Below are positions 1 to 16,356 of a stretch of 32,000 nucleotides of DNA, one piece after another. Position 1 is the first letter of the stretch. The number at the start of each line of letters is the position of its first letter. Source of the stretch: Burkholderiales bacterium (lineage in GTDB: Bacteria > Pseudomonadota > Gammaproteobacteria > Burkholderiales > Burkholderiaceae_C); NCBI GenBank assembly GCA_017302505.1, contig JAFLDH010000005.1, forward strand, positions 1 to 32,000, given 5' to 3'. Both the position numbers and the translations under genes were made by a program. The notes under the pieces are model-generated. The model was not told the DNA's origin. It worked only from the letters and a program-made list of their open reading frames with translations, and did no database searches.

Positions 1-1
1 G

Positions 2-634: not shown

Positions 635-684
635 AATGCTGGGTTTCCTGCGCCGCCGGCGCCGGACTGACCCCAACCCCCGCC

Positions 685-1956: not shown

Positions 1957-1993
1957 GCCGGCCCCTGGCGGGGTAGAATCCTGCCCATTCCGC

Positions 1994-2086
1994 GGAGCTG
2001 TGACCGAGTGGCCGAAGGTGCTCCCCTGCTAAGGGAGTATGCGGGCAAAACCTGCATCGAGGGTTCGAATCCCTCCGGCTCCGCCA
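1994..2086 (+). tRNA. tRNA-Ser (anticodon GCT, reads AGC/AGT), 93 nt including encoded CCA
   Basis: Acceptor stem GGAGCTG/CGGCTCC. Anticodon stem CTCCC/GGGAG with loop CTGCTAA. Long variable arm TATGCGGGCAAAACCTGCATC. T arm GAGGG-TTCGAAT-CCCTC. Terminal GCCA. Confidence 0.93.
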
Positions 2087-2191
2087 ACCATGTTCCCGGC
2101 CTTGCGGCGGTTCGTGCAACTGCGTAAGGCTGCCGCCAGCGCCAGGCGCTAAGGTCGGTGTCTTGTAATCTACTTGGACAAGGAGGCGAGC

Positions 2192-3376: not shown

Positions 3377-3397
3377 CGTCGCACGGCACCCCAGCAG

Positions 3398-3427
3398 AAG
3401 CGGGCCCTCGGGCCCGCTTTGTTTTGG
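3398..3427. terminator. hairpin between the convergent thiolase and decarboxylase genes
   Basis: 9-bp stem AAGCGGGCC (3398-3406) / GGCCCGCTT (3411-3419), loop CTCG, followed by TGTTTTGG. Confidence 0.7.
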
Positions 3428-3428
3428 C

Positions 3429-5150
3429 TCAGCCCTGCTGGGCTGGCGGCCGCGAGTTGGCCGCGGCCACGCGGCTGCCCCATTCCAGCAGCTCCTTGGT
3501 GCAGTCGTCGCGGTCCAGCGCGCATTCGATCAGCACCAGGCCGTCGTGCTGGCGGGCCCGCTCGATGGCCGCGGCCAGCTCGGCGCTGGTGGCTGCCTTC
3601 AGGCCCAGGCCGTTGCCCTCGCCGGCATTGAACACCGCCACCAGCCCGGCGTAGTCCCAGTTCTTGATGTTGTTGTACGGGCCGTCGTGGATCTCCACCT
3701 CGATGGTGTAGCCGCGGTTGTTCAGCAGGAAGATGATCGGGTTGGCGCCGTAGCGGATCATCGTCGAGACTTCCTGCGCCGTCAGCTGGAAGGAGCCGTC
3801 GCCGATCAGCGCCACCGTGCGGCGCTGCGGGCCGGCGCCGATGGCCACGCCCAGCGTGGCGCCGGTCGCCCAGCCGATGGAGCCGTACTGCATCTGGAAG
3901 TGGTAGCCGGCGCCTGCGGGCAGGCTGAGCTTCTGGCCGTTGAACCAGGAATCGCCCGTCTCCACCACCAGCTGCGTGCTCGGCCCCAGCAGCTGCTGCA
4001 CATGGGCGCGCAGCTCGCGCAGCGCCAGCCGGCTGTCGGCGACCGGCGGCAGGGAAGGGGCCGTGGCCTGGTGCAGCCGCTGGTAGGCGGCCAGCGAGGC
4101 ATCCTTCTTTGGCGCACGCGCCGCCAGCGCGGCGATGAAGTCCGCCAGCCGCACGTTGTGGAACGGCGTGCCGGCCACCGTTACCCGGTCGGGGTCGATG
4201 GTGATGGCCTTCTTGTGGTTGACCAGTGCCGTCCAGCCGACGGTGGTGTAGTCGTTGAAGATCGGCCCGGCGAAGATCTGGTAGTCGCTGGATTCGATGA
4301 CCTCGGCGCAGTCCTCGCTGCTGACCTCGCCCCAGTAGGTGCCGATGAAGCCGGGGTGGTTCTCGCGCAGCAGGCCCTTGGCGTTGGGCATCACCGCCAC
4401 TGCACAGCCCAGCGCATCGGCCAGCTGCTCGAAGGCGCCTTGCGCGCCGGCTGGCGCGATCTTCACACCGGCCAGCAGCACCGGCTTGACGGCCGCGTTC
4501 AGGTGGGTGAGGGCGGCTTCCACGGCGGCGCCCAGCGAAGCGGCATCGCTGGGCAATGGGGCAGGGGGCAGCGTCATCGGCCCCGGCGCTGGCACACGGG
4601 CATTGGCCAGGTTGCAGGCGATCTCCAGGTACACCGGCTTGCGCTCGCGCAGGCACAGCGTCAGCGCCTCGTCGATCAGCGCCGGCGCGTCGTCCAGGTG
4701 GCGGATGACGATGGCCTTGCGCACCACCGGCGCGAAGCACTGGGCGGCCTGGTAGAAGTCCTTCTCGCCGATGGTGTGGTGCAGCACATGGTGCGCGCCG
4801 GCGTCGTTGCTGTTGGGCCCGCCCGAGATCACCAGCACCGGCAGGTCGTCGGAGTACGAGCCGGCGATGGCATTCAGCAGGCTGGTGGCGCCGACCATGT
4901 AGGTCGCCACCACCATCGAGAAGCCGCGCACCCGCGCGTAGCCGTCGGCCGCGTAGCCGGCGTTCAGCTCGTTGCAGCAGCCGATCATGCGCAGGCCCGG
5001 CTGCTTCAGCAGCTCGTCCAGCAGCACCAGGTTGTAGTCGCCGGGCACACCGAAGAAATCGGTCAGGCCGGCCTGGGCGACGCGGGCAGCCAGATAGCCG
5101 CCGAGCGTGGTGGTAGGGGTGGACGACAAGCGGGTTCCTCCTTCAGACAT
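3429..5150 (-). CDS. thiamine-diphosphate-dependent 2-keto-acid decarboxylase (pyruvate/indolepyruvate/phenylpyruvate decarboxylase family)
   Basis: 573 aa. N-terminal TPP-pyrimidine domain (FGVPGDYNLVLLDEL). C-terminal TPP-binding motif IGDGSFQLTAQEVSTMIRYGANPIIFLLNNRGYTIE. The substrate cannot be read from sequence. Confidence 0.85.
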   Translation of the reverse strand: MSEGGTRLSSTPTTTLGGYLAARVAQAGLTDFFGVPGDYNLVLLDELLKQPGLRMIGCCNELNAGYAADGYARVRGFSMVVATYMVGATSLLNAIAGSYSDDLPVLVISGGPNSNDAGAHHVLHHTIGEKDFYQAAQCFAPVVRKAIVIRHLDDAPALIDEALTLCLRERKPVYLEIACNLANARVPAPGPMTLPPAPLPSDAASLGAAVEAALTHLNAAVKPVLLAGVKIAPAGAQGAFEQLADALGCAVAVMPNAKGLLRENHPGFIGTYWGEVSSEDCAEVIESSDYQIFAGPIFNDYTTVGWTALVNHKKAITIDPDRVTVAGTPFHNVRLADFIAALAARAPKKDASLAAYQRLHQATAPSLPPVADSRLALRELRAHVQQLLGPSTQLVVETGDSWFNGQKLSLPAGAGYHFQMQYGSIGWATGATLGVAIGAGPQRRTVALIGDGSFQLTAQEVSTMIRYGANPIIFLLNNRGYTIEVEIHDGPYNNIKNWDYAGLVAVFNAGEGNGLGLKAATSAELAAAIERARQHDGLVLIECALDRDDCTKELLEWGSRVAAANSRPPAQQG

Positions 5151-6777
5151 AGTTCTGGTAGACCGGCGTGTAGGCGTAGCTGCGCACGTGCTGGGCGATG
5201 TCGGCCGGCCGCGGCACGCGCGCCAGGCCGCGGTCGAAGATCAGCTGCGCCACGCGCGTGGCGGCATGCAGCGAGGCTTCCAGGATGTGGCTCTGCGGCG
5301 GGTAGATCAGGCCACTGTCCAGCTGCGCCTGTGTCACCTGTTCGGCCACCGCCTGCGCGGTGCAGATGAACATCTCCTGCGTGACGCGGCTGGCCTCGGT
5401 GGCCAGCACCGCCAGGCCCATGGCCGGGAAGATGTAGACGTTGTTGCCCTGGCCGGGGATGAAGGTCTTGCCGCCGAGCGTCACCGGGTCGAAGGGGCTG
5501 CCGCTGGCGAAGATGGCACGGCCCTGCGACCAGGTGTAGGCCTCCTGCGCGGTGCATTCCGAGCGCGAGGTCGGGTTCGAGTAGGGGAAGATGATCGGCC
5601 GCGCATTGATGCGGCTCATCGCCTCGATCACCGCCTGGTTGAAGAGCTTGGGCACCGTGCTGACGCCGATGATCACCGTCGGCTTGATCGCCTCGATGGC
5701 GGCCACGAAGCTGGCTACCGCCGGGTGCGCGTGCGAGAAGGGTTTCTGGAAGTCGGTGAGGTCGGTGCGCGCCTGGGTGATCAGGCCGTTGACGTCGTAC
5801 AGCCAGTTGCGGGCGCGCGCCTGCTCGAGGGTCAGGCCCTCCAGTGCCATCGCCTCGCTGATCAGTTCGGCAATGCCGGTGGCCGCGGCGCCGCCGCCCA
5901 GGAACAGCACGGTCTGCTGGCTGAGCTTCTCGCCCTTGATGCGGATGCCGCCGTAAAGCCCGGCCAGCGCCACGGCCGCCGTGCCCTGGATGTCATCGTT
6001 GTAGGTGCAGATCTTGTCGCGGTAGCGGTCCAGGATGCCGTAGGCATTGAAGTTGGCGAAGTCCTCCCACTGGATGCAGCACTTGGGGTACAGGTCCTGC
6101 ACCGCGCTGACGAACTCGTCGATGAAGGCCATGTACGCGGCCCCGCGCACCCGTTCGCTGCGCAGGCCCAGGTACAGCGGGTCGTCCTGCAGGCTGGCGT
6201 TGTTGGTGCCGACGTCCAGCGTGATCGGCAGCGTCAGGTCCGGCGGCACGCCGGCGCAGGCGGTGTACAGCGCCAGCTTGCCGATCGGGATGCCCATACC
6301 GCCCACACCCAGGTCGCCCAGGCCCAGGATGCGTTCGCCGTCGGTGACGACGATGAAGCGCACGTCCTTCTCGGGCCAGTTCTGCATCAGCTGCTTGATC
6401 CGGCCCTTGGCCGTGATCGGCAGGTACAGCCCGCGCGTGCCGCGGAAGAAATGGTCGAACTTCTGGCAGGCCTCGCCGACGGTGGGCGTATAGACCAGCG
6501 GCATGAAGTGCGCCGGGTCGGACATCAGCACCGCGTAGTACAGCGTCTGGTTGCGGCTTTGCAGGTCCGACAGGAACAGGTACTTCTGCAGGTCGTCAGG
6601 GATGGCCTCCAGCTGGCCGTGGATGCGCGCGATCTGCATGTGCAGGTCCTGCACCAGGTCCGGCAAGAGGCCGTTCAGGCCCAGGGCCTCGCGTTCAGCC
6701 TGTGTGAAGGCCGAGCCCTTGTTGTAGCGGGCGTTGTGCAGCAGCGCGTAGCCGCGCAGTTCGGTGGGGAGCGTCAT
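5143..6777 (-). CDS. maeA: NAD-dependent malic enzyme
   Basis: LLHNARYNKGSAFTQAEREALGLNGLLP, YNDDIQGTAAVALAG and Rossmann motif FLGGGAAATGIAELI. Start moved to ATG 6777 (MTLPTELRGY); the track's extra 29 codons are Pro/Gly-rich and look like upstream read-through. The 3' end overlaps the decarboxylase start by 8 nt. Confidence 0.9.
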   Translation of the reverse strand: MTLPTELRGYALLHNARYNKGSAFTQAEREALGLNGLLPDLVQDLHMQIARIHGQLEAIPDDLQKYLFLSDLQSRNQTLYYAVLMSDPAHFMPLVYTPTVGEACQKFDHFFRGTRGLYLPITAKGRIKQLMQNWPEKDVRFIVVTDGERILGLGDLGVGGMGIPIGKLALYTACAGVPPDLTLPITLDVGTNNASLQDDPLYLGLRSERVRGAAYMAFIDEFVSAVQDLYPKCCIQWEDFANFNAYGILDRYRDKICTYNDDIQGTAAVALAGLYGGIRIKGEKLSQQTVLFLGGGAAATGIAELISEAMALEGLTLEQARARNWLYDVNGLITQARTDLTDFQKPFSHAHPAVASFVAAIEAIKPTVIIGVSTVPKLFNQAVIEAMSRINARPIIFPYSNPTSRSECTAQEAYTWSQGRAIFASGSPFDPVTLGGKTFIPGQGNNVYIFPAMGLAVLATEASRVTQEMFICTAQAVAEQVTQAQLDSGLIYPPQSHILEASLHAATRVAQLIFDRGLARVPRPADIAQHVRSYAYTPVYQNYV

Positions 6778-6974
6778 GGTTCGGGGCAGGCCGGGCGCGT
6801 GGCCTGGCGTGAGTGGTGTTGCAAGCGGGCCGCGAGGCCCTGGGATGACACGCCCGCCCAGCAAGTGCTGCGCCGGCCGCTGAAGCGCCCACGGTCAAGC
6901 AGGCAGCGCGCGCATCATCGGTTTGGTATCCAGGCCGGTCAAGGCCGTGGACGTGTCCATCCCGAGAATGAAAA

Positions 6975-6995
6975 CGGGCCGCACAGGGCGGCCCG
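6975..6995 (-). terminator. hairpin with a T-tract on the minus strand
   Basis: 8-bp stem CGGGCCGC (6975-6982) / GCGGCCCG (6988-6995), loop ACAGG. GAAAA at 6970-6974 gives TTTTC after the stem on the minus strand. Confidence 0.55.
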
Positions 6996-6997
6996 GA

Positions 6998-7009
6998 TTC
7001 GCATGCGTC
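6998..7009. repeat. degenerate copy (10/12) of the prophage palindrome, about 25 bp outside the left repeat
   Basis: TTCGCATGCGtc compared with TTCGCATGCGAA. Confidence 0.35.
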
Positions 7010-7024
7010 GACGACGCTGAACGT

Positions 7025-7327
7025 CTATCGTTTAGTTAACATAATATACAAACCATTACCGGGATCGTCCACGCCCAGGGCGCGGGCGAGGGTTTCACGC
7101 TTCGTCGCGTCTTTCTCCTGCGAAAGCACCGCCGCATTGATTGCGGCTTGCACGTTCAAGCCGGCAACAGCGGCGATCCTGCCTGCTAGGGCAGGGGGCA
7201 GCGGTTTCGTGCCGCGATAGACCTTCCCGATGAAGGACTCGTCTTCACCCAGTTTCTGCGCCAACTGGTAGCGGCTGGCTACCATAGAAGTTAGCGCAGC
7301 GTCAATCAGGGATTGTCCGTAGTGCAT
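7025..7327 (-). CDS. phage repressor-like small HTH protein (putative)
   Basis: 100 aa from ATG 7327 (MHYGQSLIDAAL..). Candidate helix-turn-helix SRYQLAQKLGEDESFIGKVYRG. Divergent from the replication module. Its last codons run through the left dif-like repeat. The track's 154-aa version adds an implausible N-terminus. Confidence 0.5.
   Translation of the reverse strand: MHYGQSLIDAALTSMVASRYQLAQKLGEDESFIGKVYRGTKPLPPALAGRIAAVAGLNVQAAINAAVLSQEKDATKRETLARALGVDDPGNGLYIMLTKR
7034..7061. repeat. left dif-like site (attL candidate)
   Basis: AGTTAACATAA-TATACA-AACCATTACCG. The reverse complement of the first 17 nt (TGTATATTATGTTAACT) matches the E. coli dif central region plus XerD arm (TGTATA-TTATGTTAAAT) at 16/17. 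The other arm shows no XerC-arm similarity. Confidence 0.6.
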
Positions 7328-7478
7328 ACCGGTCCTTTGGTCCTGTAGTCTCTGCCCCGTGCTGGGCCATCGGTCCAGCTTGACCGGGGGTCCAGGGGTG
7401 CGCAAGCTACCGCAGTCAATCGAAGAGGTCAACAGGGTTACAGAAACCCTAGAGCGACAAGGGGTCTTCAAGGCCCTG
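7328..7478. promoter_or_regulatory. divergent control region between the repressor-like gene and the replication module
   Basis: Non-coding gap between divergent genes. TTGACC at 7379-7384 is a possible -35 element. No confident -10 element or operator was identified. Confidence 0.3.
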
Positions 7479-7760
7479 ATGGACTTCAAGGCTCGCGATC
7501 ACGTGCAGCTGCGGGTGCGCGGCGAAACGTTGTGCGGCGTGGTCCGTGGCGATTACGAACGCTGGATCAGCGGTTCGGGTGTGCGCGTCAGCGTCAAAAC
7601 GTCCATCGGTGATTTCCGCGTGCGGCCGTTTGACCTGCGCAAGTGTTCGAGCGTAGGGGATGGCCGCTGCGCGTGCGTGGACGGGGCGCGCAGCGCACCG
7701 GCCGCGCTCGCGCGGGCGTCCGGTGTTCCCCCCCTCGGTAACACGGGGGTAGCAGCATGA
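7479..7760 (+). CDS. hypothetical phage protein (93 aa) upstream of rep
   Basis: GC-rich third codon positions. The stop overlaps the rep ATG in ATGA (7757-7760), suggesting translational coupling. Confidence 0.5.
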   Translation: MDFKARDHVQLRVRGETLCGVVRGDYERWISGSGVRVSVKTSIGDFRVRPFDLRKCSSVGDGRCACVDGARSAPAALARASGVPPLGNTGVAA

Positions 7761-8914
7761 AGCCGGGCAGGACGGTAGCAGCGCAGGCGGTGTCCGATGG
7801 GCGTCGCATCAAGTGGACCCTGGAACAGGCGATCCAGGGCGAGACAGACCGGGTCCGGGTCGATTGGTTGCGGTTCACGCTGCCTCTGGGCGCGGTCGTG
7901 CCGTTCGAGCAGCGGGGCGAAGTGGACCCCGGTGTATTGGGGACGATGGACCGGGCCGAGCGGGAGGTTCAGGTGCTGGCTCGGGGCATCGAAGCTGAAC
8001 CCCTCGGCGCAATGTACGTCGCGCGTAAGGCGGCGGTGATGCTGGCCGATCGGCTCGGGTTCGAGGTCGGCACCGTCGAGGATCGAGGGCAAGACTTCTA
8101 CCTTTGCCGGGTTCCGCTGCTGGTCAACGCTGAAACGGTGGGCTTCGTCCTGGCCGGCTCCGACAAGTCGGCACAACAGGCGGGAACCGTTCACTTCAAC
8201 CTGTTCGGCGCTGCTTGCCTTCGTGTTTCGCATGCTCAATGGGCGGGCGTTGCGTCTTGGGTTCGGGATGCGTCGGGCTGGATCACGCGCTGCGATCTGG
8301 CGCTAGACATTTTCGAGGGCTTCGATATTGCGTCGATGCCTCAAGCGTGGCTGAACGGGCAATTTGACGTTCGCGGGCAAAGACCCGCGGAGCGTGAAGC
8401 CGGGGCGTGGACTAGCGGTCACTCGCGCACCTTCTACGTTGGCAAGCGTGAGACCGGGAAAGAGCTTCGCGGGTACGAAAAGGGCGATGAGTTGTTCGGC
8501 CATGAAGCCGGCGATCCCTGGTTCCGCGCCGAGGTCGAGTTCCGCAATAACGCACGGGTCATAGACCCGGCCATCCTCGAACGGCCGGCCGACTTCTTCG
8601 CGGGTGCCTATCCGTGGTGTGCGGCTCTCCTGGCCGCGCAAAGCGTCCAGGCTGAACCCGTCCGTATTCCGGCCGGGCAGCGGGTCAAGGATGCCACCGC
8701 ACGCGCTGCGGTTTCGCGCACTGCGGCCTGGGTCGTTCGCGTTGCGATGCCGTCGGTTCGCGAGGTATTCGACAAAGCCGGCGAGTTCTTCGACGAACAG
8801 CTGATCGGCTCCGTTGGGCGGCTTTCGCACCGGCTGCGTGGCTGGTCCGAGGTCGAGCGGCGGCAAGCCTTCGCACAAGTATTCGGCGCGTCCCCCCTCG
8901 CGTCGGGTCCATGA
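7757..8914 (+). CDS. rolling-circle replication initiator (Rep_trans / RstA-gpII-like)
   Basis: 385 aa. RVDWLRFTLP, ITRCDLALDIF, TFYVGKRETGKELRGYEKG and FRAEVEFRN blocks match my recollection of the Rep_trans (PF02486) family used by CTX-type and other inoviruses. Confidence 0.8.
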   Translation: MKPGRTVAAQAVSDGRRIKWTLEQAIQGETDRVRVDWLRFTLPLGAVVPFEQRGEVDPGVLGTMDRAEREVQVLARGIEAEPLGAMYVARKAAVMLADRLGFEVGTVEDRGQDFYLCRVPLLVNAETVGFVLAGSDKSAQQAGTVHFNLFGAACLRVSHAQWAGVASWVRDASGWITRCDLALDIFEGFDIASMPQAWLNGQFDVRGQRPAEREAGAWTSGHSRTFYVGKRETGKELRGYEKGDELFGHEAGDPWFRAEVEFRNNARVIDPAILERPADFFAGAYPWCAALLAAQSVQAEPVRIPAGQRVKDATARAAVSRTAAWVVRVAMPSVREVFDKAGEFFDEQLIGSVGRLSHRLRGWSEVERRQAFAQVFGASPLASGP

Positions 8915-8936
8915 AGTTAGGGGGTAGGAAAGCATC

Positions 8937-9239
8937 ATGAAGTTTCAAAGCCGTATCACGGTCTTCGGCATGAAAGCGTCGAAGGGCGATTACGAGGGCG
9001 TCGAGTTCGATTCGACAAAGGTTTACACGCTGACTTCGATGGACGAATCGAAAGGCAACATGAAGGGGCAAGCCTGCGTCGAGTACACGCTCGGCCTGTC
9101 CGAGGAATATGACAAGTTCAAGCACTTGCCGTTCCCCTTCGACGCTGATGCGGAGTTCGAGATCGTCACCACGGGCAAAGCCTCGAAGACGGTGCTTCGC
9201 ACTCTGCGGCCGGTCGAGGCGAAGCTGCCGAAGCCCTAA
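8937..9239 (+). CDS. ssDNA-binding protein candidate (g5p position), 100 aa
   Basis: Small ORF directly after rep, preceded by GGGGGTAGGAAAG. The functional call rests on position and size only. Confidence 0.55.
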   Translation: MKFQSRITVFGMKASKGDYEGVEFDSTKVYTLTSMDESKGNMKGQACVEYTLGLSEEYDKFKHLPFPFDADAEFEIVTTGKASKTVLRTLRPVEAKLPKP

Positions 9240-9242
9240 GCC

Positions 9243-9446
9243 ATGCGGCTCCTCATCCAGTCCTGCGAAACGTGGCAGTTCCTGCACGTGTCGCCCCGTA
9301 ACGGTGATGTGACTTGGACGCCTTCACTTTTGACGGCGATCCGGCACGGCATCGTGGCGGAACCGGATGAGGCCGCGCAGCTGATCGAGGACCACGCAGA
9401 AGTCGGCGGCTGCATCGTCGTCAACCTGGATGCGGCTCGGTCCTGA
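9243..9446 (+). CDS. hypothetical phage protein (67 aa)
   Basis: Starts 4 nt after the previous stop. Third-position GC bias is consistent with coding. Confidence 0.5.
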   Translation: MRLLIQSCETWQFLHVSPRNGDVTWTPSLLTAIRHGIVAEPDEAAQLIEDHAEVGGCIVVNLDAARS

Positions 9447-9458
9447 GTTGTCGCGGCC

Positions 9459-9557
9459 ATGCACCTTCCGAACCCCCTCGAACTTTTCGGCTGGTGGATG
9501 GCTGTTTGTATCGCATATGCGTGGGCGGTTCTCATGCGAAACCGCCTCATGAATTAG
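9459..9557 (+). CDS. 32-aa hydrophobic micro-ORF (g7p/g9p-like minor coat candidate); not in the ORF track
   Basis: My translation is MHLPNPLELFGWWMAVCIAYAWAVLMRNRLMN: a single TM-like core with a basic tail, located just upstream of the major coat gene as in Ff phages. Confidence 0.4.
   Translation: MHLPNPLELFGWWMAVCIAYAWAVLMRNRLMN
9529..9540. repeat. palindrome copy, 11/12
   Basis: TTCtCATGCGAA, 78 bp upstream of the coat gene ATG. A related palindrome CGCATATGCG lies at 9512-9521. Confidence 0.6.
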
Positions 9558-9617
9558 GCCGGGAGTGCCTGATCCGTCGCCGGCGCGGGTTTCGTCGGTT
9601 TCTTTGGAGTGTTTGCA

Positions 9618-9809
9618 ATGAAGTTCTCGAAGTTCGGCGCCATCGGCGCAACCCTGTCCGGTCTGGCGATCCAGGCCCACGCCGCCGTCCCGGCGGCCGT
9701 CACCACGGCGCTCGAAGGCATGCAGGAGGACGGTCTGGCCGTGGCCACCGCCGTACTCGTCGCCACCATCGTGGTCGCCGCCTTCAAGTTCATGAAGAAG
9801 GGCATGTGA
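9618..9809 (+). CDS. major coat protein precursor (g8p-like)
   Basis: 63 aa. Signal peptide MKFSKFGAIGATLSGLAIQAHA. The predicted ~41-aa mature part has an acidic N-terminus (EGMQED), a hydrophobic core (LAVATAVLVATIVVAAF) and a basic C-terminus (KFMKKGM). GGAG at 9606-9609 precedes ATG 9618. Confidence 0.85.
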   Translation: MKFSKFGAIGATLSGLAIQAHAAVPAAVTTALEGMQEDGLAVATAVLVATIVVAAFKFMKKGM

Positions 9810-10237
9810 TGGGCTTCCCGGCGCGGTCGGCATTTGCGGTTGCGGCCTTCGTGGCGGCGGCTTCGGTGCAGGCTGCGCCGGGCTTTGGCTATCAGGACCG
9901 GTGCTATGCGACAAAAGCCGAAGCTCTAGCGGCGTTCTGCCGCGGGGAATTTCCGAAGCTTTCGCTTGAGACGGATGAATCGGTTTCCGCGAACACGTGG
10001 TCGTTGCTAATCAAGGTGGCAACGTGTCAGTCGGTTACGGCTCCGGATACGCTGAATCTCTGGTGGAACCGACCCGGTCAAAACGGGCAGGGCGGCGTCG
10101 CGATGAAGCTCGATAACTGGCCGCCGTGCGACACGGACAATTATTTCGGGCTAAGTGATGCTCTTCTCCTCGGATGGGGCATCGGCACCGCTTGGATTCT
10201 GACTGCGGCGGCGCTTCGCATGCGAAAGGCGTGGTAA
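9809..10237 (+). CDS. secreted/membrane-anchored phage protein (142 aa), minor virion protein candidate
   Basis: The ATG overlaps the coat stop (ATGTGATG). Signal peptide MGFPARSAFAVAAFVAAASVQA. C-terminal TM LLLGWGIGTAWILTAAAL followed by RMRKAW. The upstream part of the track ORF (from 9494) is rejected. Confidence 0.7.
   Translation: MGFPARSAFAVAAFVAAASVQAAPGFGYQDRCYATKAEALAAFCRGEFPKLSLETDESVSANTWSLLIKVATCQSVTAPDTLNLWWNRPGQNGQGGVAMKLDNWPPCDTDNYFGLSDALLLGWGIGTAWILTAAALRMRKAW
10215..10226. repeat. palindrome copy, perfect
   Basis: TTCGCATGCGAA at the 3' end of the 142-aa ORF, just upstream of the 28-aa ORF and the g3p-like gene. Confidence 0.7.
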
Positions 10238-10323
10238 TGCTAATTGCAGATTACATCTATCCTATCGCGCTCTTAGTCTGCCTTTGCGGCGTGGCTTGGA
10301 TCATCGTCAAGGGGCTGGAATGA
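10237..10323 (+). CDS. 28-aa hydrophobic micro-ORF (g7p/g9p-like candidate); not in the ORF track
   Basis: My translation is MLIADYIYPIALLVCLCGVAWIIVKGLE. Its ATG overlaps the upstream stop (TAATG) and its stop overlaps the downstream ATG (ATGA at 10320-10323). Confidence 0.5.
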   Translation: MLIADYIYPIALLVCLCGVAWIIVKGLE

Positions 10324-11822
10324 AAGACGGTCCAGCTGCATTCTTCCTGTCGTTTCTCGTCGTCGGGCTTCTTCTGGTGTCGATGCCTCGATGCGCAATG
10401 GCTCTAACTCCACCAGTCGGCACTATTCAGCCGGCGATTGATGCCACCGGGCGGGTAACTGTCGGTGTTGGAGCAATGAATAATTCTTGGGGCGTCACTA
10501 TCGGGACGAATCCAGGCGGCACGAACATTGGTAAAGATTTCGTGATGCCCGGCCCAGGCGGTCGCACCGCTGCGGCTAAGGTAACTGCTAGGCTCACGGC
10601 GGCGGAGCTTGCGTTATTCGCTGGTCGCGCGGCTGGTGCGATAGGTGCGGCGGCATGGGTCGGCTCCATGCTGTACGACTATTGGCAGGATGAGCGAGTG
10701 CAGCCGGGCGGCGCGTCTGGTGCTCTTGGGCGTGATCCAGGTCAAGCGACCGTGCCGTTCGATCAGTGGTGCGTTGCGGCCAGTGGGGTGCAATCGGCCA
10801 GCACTTGGACGGGCTGCTATGGAACACCGATGGCGGCCATGCAGGGGCTCGCGGGTTACTTCAATGATACGAACTATCAAGACGGCGGCGGGCTTAAAAG
10901 CGTCTGGTCTGCGCCCACTGTTTGCAACGCGTCCGGCGACTTCGTAGATTGCTGGCTTCGCGTGGCGCAGTGCTTCGGCGCAGGCTGCACTGTCGGCGCG
11001 CCGTCGAACTATCAACAGGTCCGGGTAAACAAGTCGGTTGGTGCGCAGTGCCCGGCCTGGATTGATTTCTACGGCAATAACATTGCTGCCGGCGGTAGCG
11101 CAATCGGCCCGGATGGCAAGTGTCCTAGTGGCACCTATGCGCCTATCACTGCGGAAGAGTTGCAAGCGATACGCGAAGCGCGGGCTAATGCGTGGGTGCC
11201 CGAAGACCTAAACGAACTGACCCGGGAGATTCTCGGCATCGTGCCGATTCCGGTGCAAGACGTTGCGGACGTAGAGGTTGGGAACGTCGTGCCCGGCAGC
11301 TTGAGCGGTCCGGAAACCACCACCACCACGGAAGTCGGCGGGCAACAGGTCGAGCAGAAAGAAGCCATCGGGTGGGATTGGTCTCGTGACCCGTTGCGGG
11401 GTACTGAAGGGAACTGGATCGAGACAAAAACCATCTTTGAGAAAGACGCTAACGGTAACTGGCAAACCAAGTCCACCACGCGCACTCAGGGCGAAACGTC
11501 AGGCGATGCTGCGAAGAAGGCCGGCGATATGTGCGCGCTAAACCCCGATGCGGCAGCATGCAAGGCCCTTGGCACTGCACCGGAACCGGACACGATTCCG
11601 GAGCAGGAAATCGAGTTCGAGATAACGCCTGTTTCGGGGTTTGGACCGTCAACGGCGGCATGCCCGGCGCCTCGAACAATCAGCGTGTCTCATGGTGTCC
11701 AGCTGTCTATGCCGTTCGATCTGCTGTGCGAGTTCGCGGACGGAATACGCCCCGTCGTTCTAGCCATGGCATGGATCGGCGCGGTGTTCACGTTCATGGG
11801 CGTAAGCCGGCGCGAGGGGTAA
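10320..11822 (+). CDS. adsorption/minor coat protein (g3p-like), 500 aa
   Basis: Signal peptide MKDGPAAFFLSFLVVGLLLVSMPRCAMA. Cys-paired N-terminal regions, a Thr-rich linker (PETTTTTE) and a C-terminal membrane anchor VVLAMAWIGAVFTFMGV followed by SRREG. It is the largest ORF and sits at the g3p position. Start moved to ATG 10320. Confidence 0.75.
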   Translation: MKDGPAAFFLSFLVVGLLLVSMPRCAMALTPPVGTIQPAIDATGRVTVGVGAMNNSWGVTIGTNPGGTNIGKDFVMPGPGGRTAAAKVTARLTAAELALFAGRAAGAIGAAAWVGSMLYDYWQDERVQPGGASGALGRDPGQATVPFDQWCVAASGVQSASTWTGCYGTPMAAMQGLAGYFNDTNYQDGGGLKSVWSAPTVCNASGDFVDCWLRVAQCFGAGCTVGAPSNYQQVRVNKSVGAQCPAWIDFYGNNIAAGGSAIGPDGKCPSGTYAPITAEELQAIREARANAWVPEDLNELTREILGIVPIPVQDVADVEVGNVVPGSLSGPETTTTTEVGGQQVEQKEAIGWDWSRDPLRGTEGNWIETKTIFEKDANGNWQTKSTTRTQGETSGDAAKKAGDMCALNPDAAACKALGTAPEPDTIPEQEIEFEITPVSGFGPSTAACPAPRTISVSHGVQLSMPFDLLCEFADGIRPVVLAMAWIGAVFTFMGVSRREG

Positions 11823-11825
11823 CGT

Positions 11826-12101
11826 ATGAACTGGGCAACCTGGCTAATGAGTCTCGCGGCGCCGATTGCGAAGCGCGTCGCGGTCGCACTCGGTTTCGGT
11901 TATGTCAGTTTCGAGGGCGCTGCTCTGGTTCTGGAAAACGCATTCGCGTCGGCGCAGGGGGCCTTAGGCGGGCTCGTCGGGGAAGCGGCGGCGATCTTGG
12001 CACGCGCTGGCATGTTCGATGCGATGGCGATTGCGTCCGGCGCGCTGGTGGCGTCCTTGTCCTGGGTCATGCTGCGTAGGTTCGCGCTTGTCTCGTCTTA
12101 G
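11826..12101 (+). CDS. g6p-like minor coat protein (DUF2523-like), 91 aa
   Basis: MNWATWLMSLAAPIAKRVAVALGFGYVSFEG.. with several hydrophobic segments, located between the g3p-like and Zot-like genes. Confidence 0.7.
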   Translation: MNWATWLMSLAAPIAKRVAVALGFGYVSFEGAALVLENAFASAQGALGGLVGEAAAILARAGMFDAMAIASGALVASLSWVMLRRFALVSS

Positions 12102-12105
12102 GGGT

Positions 12106-12117
12106 TTCGCATGCGAA
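12106..12117. repeat. palindrome copy, perfect
   Basis: TTCGCATGCGAA, 5 nt after the g6p-like stop and upstream of the zot-like gene. Confidence 0.7.
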
Positions 12118-12210
12118 CGGTCTTTCTTCGTCGCTCCCTGTGGCGCGCATGGTCCGCGGCGATAGGCTTCGGGGTTCGGCAGCTGCTGCGCTCGTTGTTC
12201 AGGTGATGCG

Positions 12211-13278
12211 GTGGCGATCACGCTGATAACAGGCGTTCCGGGCAGTGGGAAGTCGGCGCTTATCGTTTCGCTCTTGGCAAAGCAGCCGGCAGACCGGCCG
12301 GTTTATGTCCACGGCATACCCGATCTAAAGGTCAAGCACCTAAAGCTCGAAGACCCGCACCGCTGGCACCTCGATCTGCCGGATGGTGCGCTAGTGGTTA
12401 TTGATGAGGTGCAGGAGGTATGGCGCGCGGCCGGGGCAGGGCAGAAAGTGCCGGAGTCGATACAGGCCCTCGAAAGGCACCGGCACCGGGGCTTTGATTT
12501 CATCATTGCCACGCAGGGGCCGAAGCTCGTTCATTCAAACGTTCGAGCCCTGGTGAATCCGCACATTCACTTGCGTAACCTTGGCTTCTTGGGGCGTCGA
12601 TATTATGAATGGCCGGAGTGCTCTGATTTGCTGTCTTGGAAGTCTGCGCCGATTTCCAAAAAGTACAAGCTTCCAAAGCGCGTGTTCTCGGAGTATCGAA
12701 GCGCAACCATTCACAACAAACCGGCAAACCGGATACCTGCGTCGGCCCTGGTGCTCGGTGTCGGGGTTGTCGCCCTGGTCGGGCTCGGCTGGTATCTGAG
12801 CGGGCGGCTCCTTCGCGGCGCGGGCGTCGAGGGCGAAGCCGTCGCGACAGCACCGGCGGCAGCTTCGGCACCGGCAGGGCAGGGCGGGGCGCTTGATCGA
12901 ATCATCAACGGGGCGCGCGAGGTCGAAGCGGCGGCCGGCATCGCACGCTGGCCGGAGTACGCAAGCGGCGCGCTGCGGACCGAGGTCGAGCCATTCGAGG
13001 GGCTTGCCGTTGTGCTCGATGGCCACTGGCAACGGGACGGGGCAACCTTTGCGAGTTTTGGGCTGATCGACGCTGGCCAGCGTATCGCGACGATGACACT
13101 CGCGCAGGTAGTGCGTGCCGGGTACTCGTGGAAAACGCTCGCGCCATGCGTCGGCGCGCTGCGGTTCGGCGAGGTCGAGCGGCGGGTTATATGCGGCAAG
13201 CCTGCACTGCCGCTACCCGCACCGGCCGCAGGTGCAAGCGTCGAAGCTAACGCTTCGACGGTGCCGGCCAGACTCTAG
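12211..13278 (+). CDS. Zot / g1p-like assembly ATPase
   Basis: GTG start after AGGTGA. Walker A ITGVPGSGKS, Walker B-like LVVIDEVQE, a central TM ALVLGVGVVALVGLGWYL and a C-terminal periplasmic-type domain. Confidence 0.85.
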   Translation: MAITLITGVPGSGKSALIVSLLAKQPADRPVYVHGIPDLKVKHLKLEDPHRWHLDLPDGALVVIDEVQEVWRAAGAGQKVPESIQALERHRHRGFDFIIATQGPKLVHSNVRALVNPHIHLRNLGFLGRRYYEWPECSDLLSWKSAPISKKYKLPKRVFSEYRSATIHNKPANRIPASALVLGVGVVALVGLGWYLSGRLLRGAGVEGEAVATAPAAASAPAGQGGALDRIINGAREVEAAAGIARWPEYASGALRTEVEPFEGLAVVLDGHWQRDGATFASFGLIDAGQRIATMTLAQVVRAGYSWKTLAPCVGALRFGEVERRVICGKPALPLPAPAAGASVEANASTVPARL

Positions 13279-13310
13279 GCGTTCGGAAACGTCACGGGTA
13301 GGGCAGGGCG

Positions 13311-13322
13311 TTCGCATGAGAA
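13311..13322. repeat. palindrome copy, 11/12
   Basis: TTCGCATGaGAA, immediately 5' of the 13325-13343 hairpin. Confidence 0.6.
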
Positions 13323-13343
13323 AAGGCCCGGCGAAGCCGGGCC
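13321..13343. terminator. hairpin between the convergent zot-like gene and the reverse-strand accessory operon
   Basis: Stem GGCCCGGC (13325-13332) / GCCGGGCC (13336-13343), loop GAA. The preceding AAAA gives a T-tract on the minus strand. Confidence 0.55.
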
Positions 13344-13366
13344 GCGATCAATTTCCTGGGTGCGGT

Positions 13367-13594
13367 TCACCCGATAACGCGGTCCACGTTGCGGATTTCG
13401 TATCCGTTCCGCCCGGCCCATTCCTTCGCAAGCCATGAGGCTTCCGCGCTTGTGTCCGCTGGCGGTGTGTTGGGCGTTGCTGCGCTCGGGCCGCGGTTGT
13501 GGTAGTCGTCGGCTGTCACTACCCGGCCGACGAAACGCACCCGGCCCGGCTCGTCGCTGGGTACGGGTTGCACGCTGATGAAAGCGAAGTTCAC
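13367..13594 (-). CDS. hypothetical protein (75 aa) coupled to the parB-like gene
   Basis: The GTG at 13594 overlaps the ParB-like stop (GTGA). Sequence (V/M)NFAFISVQPVPSDEPGRVRFVGRVV...WLAKEWAGRNGYEIRNVDRVIG. The track's ATG at 13627 would overlap parB by 37 nt. No family recognised. Confidence 0.45.
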   Translation of the reverse strand: MNFAFISVQPVPSDEPGRVRFVGRVVTADDYHNRGPSAATPNTPPADTSAEASWLAKEWAGRNGYEIRNVDRVIG

Positions 13595-14442
13595 GCGCCG
13601 GCCTTCGTCAGTTCGGCGCAAAGCCATTCGATCCCGCCCAGCTGCTCGAAGGCGGCGAGGTACTGCACCGGCACGGCCACCTGAAAATGCGTCGTCGGAT
13701 CGACCGGCGCGGCGGTGGTGGTTTCGGTGTGGTTGGCCTTGGTGTGCGTCGTTGTCGTCGTCACGGGTGCGGGCGCAGCTGCGGGCGGTGCCTTCAAAGC
13801 GGCGAGGGCATCCCGGGCGATCTGGCGATTCATGTCGCCGGCCTGGGCAATGCGGATCATTCGGCCCATCGTTAACAGGGCGCGCGGATCGGTTTTCGTC
13901 AGCTTGTCGATTTGGTTGAGGAGAATAAGCGTTTCGAGGTCCTGCACGATGCCGCGATCGAGCATTTCGGCCGCGATCGTGGAAAAGCTCGAACCCGTCA
14001 AGCTCAGGTGTTTCGAGACCCAGGCGGGCGACTTGTTCAGGATCGTGCCGACGCGCTTCGCGTTGTCGTAGATCATCATCAGGGTCCGCACGGCGCGCGC
14101 AGTGTCGGCGAGGGTCATCTGCTCGCGTTGCAGGTTCTCGGCAATCTCCATCTGATAGGCGGCTTCTTGCTCGGCATTGCTGATCAGGGCGGGCACCTCG
14201 GCGAACCCGGCCAGCTTCGCGGCGGCGATGCGGCGGCGGCCGGCGATCACTACGAAAGGCGGGTTCCCGTCCGGGCCGGCTTCGTCGTCGGCGGTGGCGT
14301 TGCGAAGCACCACGGGCTGCAACATGCCGTGAGTCTTCAGCGACTCGGCAAGCTCGGACAGGCCTTCTTTATCGAAGCCGTTCGATAGGCGCACGTTCGA
14401 GGTGGTGCGGATCTGAGCGATGGGGACCAGCTGCACATTCAT
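13591..14442 (-). CDS. ParB/KorB-like DNA-binding protein (ParB N-terminal domain plus HTH), 283 aa
   Basis: From ATG 14442: MNVQLVPIAQIRTTSNVR. Box-II arginine patch VVIAGRRRIAAAKLAG. HTH-like ILNKSPAWVSKHLSL. Low-complexity PPAAAPAPVTTTTTHTKANHTETTTAAP linker and a short C-terminal domain. The track's 94-codon N-terminal extension covers the hairpin region and is rejected. Confidence 0.8.
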   Translation of the reverse strand: MNVQLVPIAQIRTTSNVRLSNGFDKEGLSELAESLKTHGMLQPVVLRNATADDEAGPDGNPPFVVIAGRRRIAAAKLAGFAEVPALISNAEQEAAYQMEIAENLQREQMTLADTARAVRTLMMIYDNAKRVGTILNKSPAWVSKHLSLTGSSFSTIAAEMLDRGIVQDLETLILLNQIDKLTKTDPRALLTMGRMIRIAQAGDMNRQIARDALAALKAPPAAAPAPVTTTTTHTKANHTETTTAAPVDPTTHFQVAVPVQYLAAFEQLGGIEWLCAELTKAGA

Positions 14443-14469
14443 GGCTAACACGCCGTCAATGGCCGCACG

Positions 14470-14481
14470 TTCGCACGCGAA
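14470..14481. repeat. palindrome copy, 11/12, 28 nt upstream of the parB-like ATG
   Basis: TTCGCAcGCGAA. Confidence 0.6.
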
Positions 14482-14541
14482 ACGCACCGGCCGGGCCTGA
14501 GGCACCGCCCTATGCGATACCTTCAGCAGACCTTCCTCGCT

Positions 14542-14560
14542 CCCCTCGCAGGGCGAGGGG
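14542..14560. repeat. short hairpin carrying the CCCCTCGC motif
   Basis: CCCCTCGC (14542-14549) - AGG - GCGAGGGG (14553-14560). Confidence 0.6.
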
Positions 14561-14611
14561 CGGGGGGGAGTGGGTTGGTGGAAAACAGGGCGAAGGGCCG
14601 CGCTGTGGCGA

Positions 14612-14685
14612 CCCCTCGCAAAAAAGACACCCCCGTTAACCCCCTCATAGCGGAGCGGGGGGTTAACGGGGGTGTCTGCGAGGGG
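14612..14685. repeat. 74-nt composite hairpin (candidate packaging signal, ssDNA origin or protein-binding site)
   Basis: Perfect 19-bp inner stem GACACCCCCGTTAACCCCC (14626-14644) / GGGGGTTAACGGGGGTGTC (14658-14676) with a 13-nt loop. Outer 9-bp stem CCCCTCGCA (14612-14620) / TGCGAGGGG (14677-14685), with an AAAAA bulge on the left arm. Confidence 0.75.
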
Positions 14686-14820
14686 TTGGCGCAGCGTGGA
14701 CCGTAGCGGGGTGCAGCCTGCCAAAAGGCGGCGGACGTGACAGCTTCAGCTGGCGCGGCCGCTGCTTGGCAGGCGGATCAGGTGCAGCGGCGGTCGAACA
14801 CCACCGCGCGAGGGATCGTT

Positions 14821-14851
14821 ACCCGAAGGGCCGAAACCCGAAGGGGTTCGG
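14821..14851. repeat. tandem direct repeat ACCCGAAGGG x2 with an overlapping imperfect hairpin
   Basis: ACCCGAAGGG at 14821-14830 and 14836-14845. CCGAAACCC / GGGTTCGG can pair around GAAG. Confidence 0.5.
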
Positions 14852-14890
14852 TTGCAATGCCATAGAGCCCGGTCCGTAGGACGCGCTTAA

Positions 14891-15160
14891 CTACCTGTAC
14901 CATCCGAAACGCTGCCACCAGTGTGGCATGGGATTCGTCGTCAGGCTGACGATGCTATCGAACTGGCCGCGGGCCTTTGCGGCTTTGATTTTCGCGACGA
15001 CATTCCAGTCGCGCACGTACTGTGCGGCGCGTGGTGAATCGGGGTCGATGCGCGGAACGGCGAGCAGCCATGCGGCTATGTCGTAGTGGTAGACCGGTAT
15101 TTCGCCGAAAAGGTCGTATGGTGGATGTATGCGGTGGGCGCGTGGTCTATGCTTCCGCAT
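14891..15160 (-). CDS. hypothetical protein (89 aa) next to the right phage end
   Basis: Longest ORF in this stretch, with roughly 70% GC at third positions by hand count. No family recognised. It competes with a back-to-back plus-strand ORF starting at 15161. Confidence 0.35.
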   Translation of the reverse strand: MRKHRPRAHRIHPPYDLFGEIPVYHYDIAAWLLAVPRIDPDSPRAAQYVRDWNVVAKIKAAKARGQFDSIVSLTTNPMPHWWQRFGWYR

Positions 15161-15374
15161 ATGGGAATCATGGACCGCGACTGGTATCGCGAACGCTGGG
15201 AAAAGCGGGTGCTTGGTTGGAGCCCGGCTAGGCGGCGCAGGGTTGCGAAGGGCTCAGTTCCGGTGTGGCCGTTTGTTGTTCTTGCTGCGTGCCTAGTGGC
15301 CGCGTGGGTGTTTGCCAAGGTGATGCGCGCTTTGTTCTGAGGCTCCCGACAGCCATACGCAATAGCTTGCGCAT

Positions 15375-15402
15375 AGTTGACATAATATACATCGTCGCGC
15401 AT
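15375..15402. repeat. right dif-like site (attR / candidate functional dif)
   Basis: AGTTGACATAA-TATACA-TCGTCGCGCAT. The XerD arm plus central region is dif-like (15/17 to the E. coli dif central region plus XerD arm). The other arm contains a TGCGC core but lies 1 nt out of register with the E. coli XerC arm. Confidence 0.55.
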
Positions 15403-15408
15403 TCGTGC

Positions 15409-15621
15409 TCAGATCTGCTCGCCAGGCAAGTCCAGTTCGTCGATGTGCGATGGCTCGCCATCCTCTTCGGCCAACATCGGCAGCAGCGGCTTGTCCAGCG
15501 GCCGGCATACGCGGCTGTGCAGCCGCTCCAATCGCTCGGAATTCTCGATCGCGCGGAAGATGGATTGCGGGTCCATCAGCAATGCAAACGGGTTGGCGAC
15601 GGGATGTTGCGGCTGCGTCAT
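15409..15621 (-). CDS. hypothetical small acidic protein (70 aa)
   Basis: High GC3. GGTGGA lies upstream of the ATG. The stop is 7 nt from the dif-like site. No family recognised. Confidence 0.45.
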   Translation of the reverse strand: MTQPQHPVANPFALLMDPQSIFRAIENSERLERLHSRVCRPLDKPLLPMLAEEDGEPSHIDELDLPGEQI

Positions 15622-15732
15622 GAAAGTCCACCAGGCTCAGTTGATCGTGAGCCCACTCTAGCGGCGGCGTCCCGCGCCTAGCAGTCGGGGCCTTGCCATG
15701 CCGCATGTCGGAAACGCGCTGACAGGCGTTGT

Positions 15733-16356
15733 CTACTTCAGCAACGGCTCGAGCCAGGTCTTGTCCAGGTTGCGCGCCATGTCCGCAGCCGTCAGGTTGC
15801 GTTCGTTGATATAGCGCCTTTCGGCGCCGCGCTTGACCAGCAGTTTGACGTTGTCCTCGGTCCCGAAGCGCACGGCCATCATCAAGGGCGTGCTCATGTC
15901 GGGCGCCCGTGCGTTGATGTCCGCACCGCGGTCAAGCAGCAACGCCAGCACTTCGGTGCTGGGCCCGGTGGCGGCGTAGTGCACCGGCGCCCAGCCCGGC
16001 TTCTGCACCTTGGCGCCGCGCTCGATCAGCTTCTTCGTCCAGTCGAGCCGGCCCATCATGGCCGCCATCATCAGCGGCGTCTCGCCGACGGCGTTGGTGG
16101 CATCCACCTTCAACGCCGGGCTGGCCAGCAGCACCTCGGCCACCTTCGGACAGTCTTCCTGCATCGCCAGGTACAGCGCCACCTGGCCTTTTTCGTTGAG
16201 CGTGTTCGGGTCGAAGCCCTTGCCCAGCAGCTCGGCCACCTTGCCGGCGTTGTCGACATTCACCGCACGGAAGAAGTCAACATACGAATCCGCCCTTGCA
16301 GGAAATAACGCTGTAATTACAAATAGATAGAAAGCTATTCGAAGGTACGTTCTCAT
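15733..16356 (-). CDS. secreted ankyrin-repeat protein (207 aa)
   Basis: Signal peptide MRTYLRIAFYLFVITALFPARA. ANK repeats (GETPLMMAAMMGRLDWTKKLIERGAKV; WAPVHYAATGPSTEVLALLLDRGADINA; STPLMMAVRFGTEDNVKLLVKRGA). The ATG overlaps the tatD-family stop (ATGA). The track's 367-aa version is upstream read-through. Confidence 0.85.
   Translation of the reverse strand: MRTYLRIAFYLFVITALFPARADSYVDFFRAVNVDNAGKVAELLGKGFDPNTLNEKGQVALYLAMQEDCPKVAEVLLASPALKVDATNAVGETPLMMAAMMGRLDWTKKLIERGAKVQKPGWAPVHYAATGPSTEVLALLLDRGADINARAPDMSTPLMMAVRFGTEDNVKLLVKRGAERRYINERNLTAADMARNLDKTWLEPLLK

Follow-up and report, generated by a model that had tools for sequence, protein, structure and literature searches.

An inovirus prophage of 8.3 kb occupies about positions 7036–15400 of the window, i.e., the whole 32-kb stretch of Burkholderiales DNA analyzed here, and carries on its minus strand an orphan gene (13591–14442) for a ParB/KorB-like protein of 283 residues. 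The gene product is a genuine ParB-family protein with a helix-turn-helix (HTH) domain and intact nucleotide-pocket motifs. What is new here is a conserved, inovirus-borne ParB that lacks ParA, has a Glu-to-Arg replacement in box II and comes with candidate dispersed sites. Orphan ParB-CTPase (cytidine triphosphatase) proteins are already known as a class from mobile elements and prophages (PMC12704722), and no report of ParB in inoviruses or filamentous phages was found in the literature. A preliminary description of this DNA had joined the gene and a small overlapping open reading frame (ORF) of 75 codons, orf75, into a two-gene accessory module; the comparative data point instead to a real gene that is probably not a partner of ParB.

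Domain organization and fold of the ParB-like protein

The parB gene is read from an ATG at 14442 to a TGA at 13591, a start that the family alignment favours over the upstream GTG at 14487 chosen by a gene caller. Its product scores 60.6 bits against the ParB_N model PF02195 (cut-off 26.3, E 1.5e-16) and 87.7 bits against TIGR00180 (cut-off 58.45). When the family profile was compared with solved structures, ParB, Spo0J and Noc were the best matches (E 1e-33 to 1e-28), followed by KorB at 6e-24. The AlphaFold2 (AF2) model, with a mean predicted local distance difference test (pLDDT) score of 86, has a CTPase-fold N-domain, an HTH DNA-binding domain, a linker rich in Thr, Pro and Ala that is disordered (pLDDT <50 at residues 232–243), and a two-helix C-terminal domain, in this order. 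The model superposes on the N-domain and DNA-binding domain of KorB, Noc and ParB, with template modelling (TM) scores of 0.72–0.76 for KorB and Noc, and its top Foldseek match is KorB in the KorB–KorA–DNA complex 8qa9 (TM 0.76). Since Pfam, NCBIfam, the profile comparison with PDB structures, AF2 and Foldseek all concur, the identity of the protein as a ParB-family member is clear.

The motifs agree with this assignment. Box II, AGRRRIAAAKLAG, spans residues 67–79, box III, ENLQRE, spans residues 102–107, and the conserved residues of box I (G39, Q42, P43 and R47) are in place. The nucleotide-pocket residues G68, R70, R71, E102, N103, R106 and E107 are invariant in the family alignment, as are K137, S138, W141, S143, K144 and H145 of the HTH, and conservation within the family is highest in the HTH segment NKSPAWVSKHL. 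The arginine patch in box II, the HTH and the low-complexity Thr/Pro/Ala linker had already been read from the DNA in the preliminary description, and all of them are borne out by the motif positions, by the superposition on KorB, Noc and ParB and by the disorder of the linker in the model. The other outcome foreseen there, a bare ParB-like nuclease or sulfiredoxin-like protein, is ruled out by the full HTH domain and the TIGR00180 architecture.

Absence of ParA and substitution in box II

That the element has no Walker-type ParA, as had been noted beforehand, was confirmed at two levels. The deviant Walker A motif of ParA is not found in any ORF segment longer than 120 aa across the whole 32-kb window, the only P-loop of the prophage being that of Zot, and the gene list of an identical prophage copy contains no match to ParA, CbiA or AAA_31. 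ParA is likewise absent from the gene lists of the relatives L161, a prophage of another assembly whose ParB is 67% identical, and L169–L172. A recent survey used the motif [LFI]G[KR]G[LFI] to define ParA-dependent ParBs (PMC12704722); it occurs in 0/39 aligned members of the present family. The N-terminus is short, with 3–10 residues ahead of the first strand in the family alignment.

Box II departs from the usual sequence. At the position where five aligned solved ParB/Noc structures all have GERR, the 39 family members have GRRR (30), GHRR (5), GERR (3) or GQRR (1), and in the window ParB an Arg stands in place of the Glu. The E102A variant of Caulobacter ParB binds cytidine triphosphate (CTP) but does not hydrolyse it, giving a locked clamp that spreads further (PMC8367383). 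Given the replacement of this Glu and the phenotype of E102A, it is reasonable to infer that the CTPase cycle of the window ParB is altered and possibly slow. The natural Glu-to-Arg change also offers a ready-made test of the contribution of CTP hydrolysis.

A dispersed palindrome as the candidate ParB site

A comparison of the parB terminators brought to notice a 12-bp palindrome, TTCGCATGCGAA, usually flanked by T and A. The window holds five copies with at most one mismatch, against 0.18 expected, and none of 100 shuffles reaches five. All five lie within the prophage, four in intergenic gaps and one in the last codons of a gene, and there is none in the 23.6 kb of host DNA of the window. 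The leftmost, TTCTCATGCGAA at 9529–9540, lies in the intergenic gap before the major coat gene. Perfect copies follow at 10215–10226, at the 3′ end of a 142-aa gene upstream of the pIII-like gene, and at 12106–12117, in the gap between the pVI gene and zot. The remaining two flank the parB operon: TTCGCATGAGAA at 13311–13322 is located between the zot stop and the operon’s terminator, and TTCGCACGCGAA at 14470–14481 lies 28 nt upstream of the parB ATG, where it is a candidate loading or operator site.

Judging by 100 distinct sites, the motif extends through its flanks to TTTCGCATGCGAAA and in many cases to GTTTC...GAAAC, and position 4 of the half-site accepts G or T. The outer arms GTTTC...GAAAC recall canonical parS. 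In the form intended for a binding assay, the candidate ParB site reads GTTTCGCATGCGAAAC. The half-site TTTCGC is one base off the KorB operator half-site TTTAGC (PMC11790492). A role as an RNA or single-stranded DNA (ssDNA) hairpin was considered and rejected, for hybrid half-sites (TTCTC..GCGAA) break the pairing and the loop is too small.

Among the ParB-positive phages, this is the most widely shared palindrome (27/31), and no other is common to them. Up to 6 kb from parB, it occurs 2.95 times per 10 kb, versus 0.09 in unrelated loci with a GC content above 0.55. A copy is located within 300 bp upstream of parB in 20/39 family loci and within 300 bp downstream of the parB stop in 19/39, often at a distance of only 2–52 bp, while several other loci have a copy inside parB. 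The site is the same whether ParB is 100% or only about 30% identical, which matches the invariance of the recognition helix. Inoviruses that are related through Rep but have no ParB were also inspected; a single Rep protein searched against viral contigs retrieved nothing, and the search with a Rep alignment succeeded. Eleven of these 15 phages are without the site, and three have a single copy in rep that is not centred on AT. Because the palindrome is enriched in the prophage, is present in nearly all family loci and often flanks parB, TTCGCATGCGAA is the best candidate for a ParB loading site; the link to ParB is unproven because the palindrome is also found in complete ParB-less inoviruses, as described below.

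orf75 as a probable cargo gene

The parB stop overlaps the GTG that opens orf75 (minus strand, 13367–13594) in a GTGA at 13594–13591, exactly as previously described. The frame has the properties of a real gene: its GC content by codon position is coding-like (0.66/0.54/0.75), an AAGG stands 9 nt ahead of the GTG, and gene predictors call it on other contigs. A terminator-like hairpin on the minus strand at 13325–13343, GGCCCGGC-TTC-GCCGGGCC followed by TTTTCT, closes the parB–orf75 unit, and the same hairpin follows parB in L161. On account of the overlap and the shared terminator, parB and orf75 are predicted to be co-transcribed, with translation coupled via the GTGA.

The two genes are not, however, kept together. 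All seven examined relatives whose ParB is 54–67% identical (L161, L169, L170, L171, L172, L001 and L081) are without orf75. In L161, 81 bp separate parB from the convergent zot, and this gap holds two terminator hairpins of which one is identical to that of the window. In L001, L081 and L169–L172, with ParBs of 54–56% identity, only a short gap lies between the parB stop and the next convergent gene; the gap measures 73–118 bp and contains a terminator hairpin in L169–L172. A tblastn search of orf75 against all fetched loci found identical copies of the window phage only. A lack of conservation of the 75-aa ORF in relatives is what the preliminary description had itself named as a refutation of its module.

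That the 75-aa product is of no recognisable family holds in so far as it has no Pfam or PHROG match, but it does belong to a small unnamed family of 21 clusters with proteins of 67–94 aa. A word-index search returned orf75 itself only, and the relatives came from an exhaustive HMMER search followed by a profile search. A 790-aa match (P0076) that covered just a short internal repeat was discarded as uninformative. The family consensus is MKAYI..VVTEQDYHEGGP..EWAxxNGYxIxSVDEVAA, and the aligned N-termini begin at the position of the orf75 GTG. Four homologues have enough flanking DNA to reveal their context. Three lie among small early genes on tailed-phage-like contigs, where the neighbours include RecT, ERF, NinB, an integrase or a DNA methylase, and the fourth adjoins a gene for a protein-primed-type DNA polymerase B; ParB is a neighbour in 0/4.

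The AF2 model of orf75 (pLDDT 82) gave nothing significant in fold searches against the PDB and BFVD, and the protein has neither an HTH nor a KorA/TrbA-like domain. The segment ..EWAxxNGYxI.. is shared with the first helix of the Lsr2 DNA-binding domain. The resemblance is weak: it extends to 7/20 family members with a best E of 3.8e-4, all below curated thresholds, and the window protein itself gives no match; phrog_1223 matches 2/20 members, again below curated thresholds. This likeness of the C-terminal helix to Lsr2 may be taken as a weak hint, and it is the only one, to the function of orf75. From its absence in the ParB relatives and from the lack of a ParB neighbour next to its homologues, we conclude that orf75 is most probably a horizontally acquired cargo gene (moron), inserted between parB and its terminator, and not a ParB cofactor. 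The coupled partner on which the preliminary description had laid most stress would then be an incidental feature, and since orf75 would be cargo, work on a complex of ParB and the 75-aa protein would probably be wasted.

Distribution of the ParB family

About 55 clusters of ParB homologues were found at E <1e-29, many of them on contigs of 7–11 kb. Hallmark genes of inoviruses (Zot, Rep_trans or Phage_CRI, coat and pVI) are present in most of the fetched family loci, and parB is usually convergent with zot. In the 18 genome loci, every named host is betaproteobacterial; the names are Burkholderiales, Ideonella, Roseateles, Paraburkholderia, Trinickia, Variovorax, Rhodocyclaceae, Gallionellaceae and Methyloversatilis. 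Integration prevails among the ParB-positive phages, which are found at dif-like sites, beside a serine recombinase or in chromosomes. A tblastn search of ParB against deposited phage genomes gave weak Listeria phage matches only, and the best ParB matches among the PLSDB plasmids cover no more than 69% of the protein, with identities of about 41% or less.

The preliminary description had placed the gene outside the core inovirus gene set, and this is supported: the window element is a real inovirus with Rep_trans, Phage_Coat_B, TspB-like pIII, DUF2523/pVI and Zot. Because its carriers vary in Rep type (Rep_trans or Phage_CRI) and in integration mode (dif-like sites or a neighbouring serine recombinase), parB appears to be an accessory gene that moves among inoviruses. 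A serine recombinase (Resolvase) gene adjoins parB in L169 (2617–3201), L170 (3168–3752) and L172 (8895–9620), and integration modules seem to have been swapped around a conserved parB–zot junction. Dissimilar small ORFs lie directly upstream of parB in L161 (9796–9993, 65 aa), L170 (4190–4411, 73 aa) and L171 (891–1187, 98 aa), where the window phage has no small ORF. As these ORFs are mutually unrelated, both flanks of parB appear to act as cargo slots. One further locus, L092, contains two different inoviruses in tandem (1–6500 and 6500–16137) with two zot genes, and ParB and the palindromes are present only in the second.

Organization of the prophage and the non-coding region upstream of parB

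Two direct dif-like sites, both on the minus strand, form the ends of the prophage. The left site spans 7036–7062, with the core TGTATATTATGT at 7039–7050, and the right site, GCGCGACGATGTATATTATGTCAAC, spans 15376–15400, with an identical core at 15380–15391. No integrase was found in the prophage; this, together with the dif-like sites, suggests that integration is presumably of the CTXphi type, at dif and by XerCD. The host genes outside are a malic enzyme gene on one side and, on the other, a 70-aa gene followed by an ankyrin-repeat gene and TatD. The prophage of L161 is inserted at exactly the same chromosomal junction, and the DNA beyond the right dif-like site is common to the window and the L161 lysogen. 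The attachment site is not the tRNA-Ser (GCT) gene (1994–2086, plus strand), which lies in the host flank some 5 kb away from the prophage. Megablast of the prophage DNA against GenBank phages gave no match.

The plus strand of the prophage encodes the Rep_trans initiator (7757–8914), a 100-aa phrog_4994 protein (8937–9239), the Phage_Coat_B major coat protein (9618–9809), the TspB-like pIII (end at 11822), DUF2523/pVI (11826–12101) and Zot/pI (12211–13278). The strand of parB is opposite to that of these replication and assembly genes. In the circularised genome, the minus-strand genes form one block: a 100-aa HTH gene comes first, then an 89-aa gene, and after the non-coding region parB and orf75. 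The 89-aa gene (14891–15160) is located upstream of the hairpin described below, on the parB strand, and its product is 52% identical in L161. The 100-aa gene (7025–7327, minus strand) encodes a weak XRE/HigA-like HTH protein and is divergent from the rep operon, the classical position of a repressor. Its last approximately nine codons and its stop codon are encoded by the left dif-like site; therefore, integration or excision could alter the C-terminus of the protein. PADLOC found no defence-system match for ParB, orf75, the 89-aa, the 100-aa HTH or a 93-aa gene.

The non-coding region upstream of parB is about 430 bp long and is better conserved with L161 than the genes are: positions 14450–14880 or so are 85–100% identical to L161 9540–9790, while the proteins of both phages are only 52–67% identical. 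Within it, a block of about 70 nt is identical between the two phages bar one inserted base and contains a 19-bp palindrome, CCCCTCGC-N3-GCGAGGGG, at 14542–14560; this block may be an origin or a promoter. A near-perfect hairpin of 118 nt lies at 14590–14707, with inner arms paired at 20/20 positions and a T-run after it on the minus strand. It folds as DNA with −54.8 kcal/mol (z −9.7), is kept in L161 with a variable loop, and is probably a packaging signal or a complementary-strand origin. Rfam returned for this hairpin only look-alikes of miRNA precursors, all sub-threshold, and a sigma-70 consensus scan of 13200–15420 found no promoter.

Possible mode of action and alternative explanations

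The reading that we put forward, and believe about as much as we doubt, is that the protein is a KorB-like, ParA-independent clamp acting on the phage genome. ParB dimers would load at the copies of TTCGCATGCGAA that lie between genes of the structural half and to either side of parB, bind CTP, close as a clamp and slide along the replicative form or the prophage. The clamp would work like KorB of plasmid RK2, as a ParA-independent autoregulator and silencer (or organiser) of the phage DNA, and would possibly be long-lived as a result of the Glu-to-Arg change in box II. This proposal draws on the match to KorB in architecture and fold, on the dispersed palindromes, on the position of the gene on the regulatory strand of mostly integrative phages and on the lack of ParA and of a ParA-binding peptide. 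The palindromes that flank parB suggest autoregulation, and the mostly integrated lifestyle would make plasmid-type partition less needed. A more far-reaching version, in which a ParA-independent, hydrolysis-impaired clamp silences the virion genes via the dispersed palindromes and also acts in trans (cross-immunity or a shared regulator), seems unlikely to us; its action in trans is suggested by the same sites in ParB-less inoviruses.

Several observations weigh against the KorB-like clamp. The KorB HTH/DNA-binding model PF08535 gives 17.1 bits for the window protein, below the cut-off of 22.3; many relatives have a precomputed match to this model, which is marked weak wherever its strength is given. 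Some ParB-positive phages (L087, L088, L005 and L097) have few or degenerate sites, no promoter could be mapped, and the role of “operator” is suggested by position only. An exact 14-mer search of viral contigs, in which most matches were single and at chance level, also gave inovirus-sized ParB-less contigs with 3–8 copies, and ParB was not found in these motif-rich contigs even by an unfiltered profile search at E <10. Palindromes are present in the complete ParB-less phages L230 (127-bp terminal repeat; CRI-type Rep, G5P and a cI-like HTH) and L197 (8720-bp repeat unit) as well as in L244, L256, L297 and L301, which are partial or complete and also ParB-less, and the sites of such phages are likewise located in gaps of the structural operon. 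Clustering of all ORFs revealed no protein that is common to all motif-bearing phages and absent from motif-less ones, and nothing informative came from Pfam scans of candidate regulators in the ParB-less L297 and L244. The palindrome could therefore be unrelated to ParB and be recognised, as an operator or a processing signal, by a host factor or another phage protein, with the ParB site elsewhere. Such a role is in keeping with the equivalent intergenic positions of the motif in the complete ParB-less inoviruses and with the overlap, in some relatives, between the copy just upstream of parB and an AGGAG ribosome-binding sequence. We consider this rather unlikely, as the ParB-positive phages have no other palindrome in common, most of the 39 family loci have sites that flank parB or sit inside it, the search for an alternative shared phage protein gave none, and the motif is rare in host flanks. 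Weighing both sides, we lean slightly towards ParB binding the palindrome, with the ParB-less phages answering to ParB in trans or to another binder.

The main rival to the KorB-like clamp is plasmid-like partition, in which ParB would bind the palindromes as its centromere (parS) and keep the double-stranded replicative form stable as an episome, while either the chromosomal ParA of the host or ParA-independent clustering or hitch-hiking would take care of segregation. The canonical domain organization with a TIGR00180 score above the cut-off, the chromosomal ParB/Spo0J proteins as best sequence match and the palindromes beside or inside parB, as in many par loci, all fit this explanation. 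However, there is no ParA, none of the 39 members has the ParA-binding peptide, only 3–10 residues precede the first strand, the carriers are in most cases integrated prophages, and the sites, instead of being clustered, are scattered across the structural operon. In addition, the site is invariant across the family and in ParB-less phages, whereas we would expect incompatibility to diversify specificity. Partition is consequently judged improbable. Quite improbable as well, though compatible with the data, is a role directed at other phages, in which the ParB of a resident prophage loads on the palindromes of incoming or co-resident inoviruses and silences them (cross-immunity) or helps them in trans. 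The occurrence of one site across 30–100% ParB identity and in complete ParB-less inoviruses speaks for it, as do the location of parB on the strand of the repressor-like and other non-structural genes, presumably the strand expressed in the lysogen, and the fact that different inovirus prophages can be tandem (L092). Yet the argument is purely inferential, the ParB-less neighbour in L092, the sole tandem case seen, has no sites, and another factor may bind the site in ParB-less phages. As for a dedicated two-protein module, with the 75-aa protein as a KorA/TrbA-like cofactor of the clamp, co-expression in the window phage through the GTGA overlap and shared terminator would suit it, and KorB does work with small partner proteins (PMC11790492, PMC13584720). 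Nevertheless, orf75 is missing from every other examined ParB-family locus, including the seven relatives mentioned above, its homologues occur in phage-like contigs without ParB, it has no HTH or KorA/TrbA-like domain, and the unrelated small ORFs of the relatives are on the other side of parB. By these comparisons of gene content, the module appears to be already largely refuted, and we regard it as very improbable.

Two further features of ParB-less phages were observed. In L197 (893–1022 and 9613–9742), L230 (7270–7375) and L269 (3290–3400), TTTAGC[C/G]GCTAAA alternates with TTCGCATGAGAA, and this sequence is identical to the RK2 KorB operator core. The ParB-less phages that bear such arrays may respond in trans to ParB/KorB-type proteins, e.g., from IncP-like plasmids or other phages. 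L244, an inovirus-like fragment of 5.6 kb with additional genes for a PIN-domain protein and a tyrosine integrase, has four perfect copies of an 18-bp palindrome, AGTTTCGCATGCGAAACT, within 1.2 kb (1055–2209), each between small genes.

Comparison with known systems

KorB of the IncP-1 plasmid RK2 consists of a CTPase-fold N-domain, an HTH domain, a long flexible linker and a small C-terminal domain (PMC11790492). The window ParB is like KorB in this architecture, and KorB in 8qa9 is its best structural match. Both replicons are small and have many copies of a short palindrome dispersed over them; the KorB half-site TTTAGC is close to TTTCGC. In contrast, the palindromes differ in length, with 13 bp for KorB versus 12–14 bp for the window phage, and KorB works with a ParA partner, to which an IncC(ParA)-interacting peptide at its N-terminus belongs, and with the co-repressors KorA and TrbA; none of these was found for the window ParB. 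The sequence similarity of KorB to the window ParB is also lower than that of chromosomal ParB, the PF08535 score is sub-threshold, and the KorB replicon is a plasmid, whereas that of the window ParB is an ssDNA phage.

Chromosomal ParB/Spo0J of the ParABS systems is the best match in sequence (E 1e-33), and the window ParB shares with it boxes I–III and a TIGR00180 score above the cut-off. Unlike it, the window ParB is phage-borne and has no ParA and no ParA-binding motif, its family has GRRR instead of GERR at box II, and its candidate site has 6 bp between the arms, compared with 4 bp in canonical parS. ParA-independent ParB paralogues with dispersed specific sites and roles other than segregation are represented by Noc, BisD of ICEclc and VirB (PMC12704722, PMC12409273). 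Noc is among the top matches of the window ParB in both sequence and structure, although the taxon and the element type of all three differ from those of the window protein. Noc has a membrane-targeting helix, for which the N-terminus of the window ParB is too short.

To our knowledge, few models exist for how filamentous phages choose between chronic production and silent carriage (CTXphi RstR and the Pf repressors). If the KorB-like reading is true, inoviruses would gain a new type of regulator, a conserved ParB-CTPase clamp that has dispersed sites of its own, and an ssDNA phage would have a KorB-like switch for lysogeny or production. The theme of ParB clamps with non-segregation roles, as seen in KorB, Noc and BisD, would then reach the ssDNA phages.

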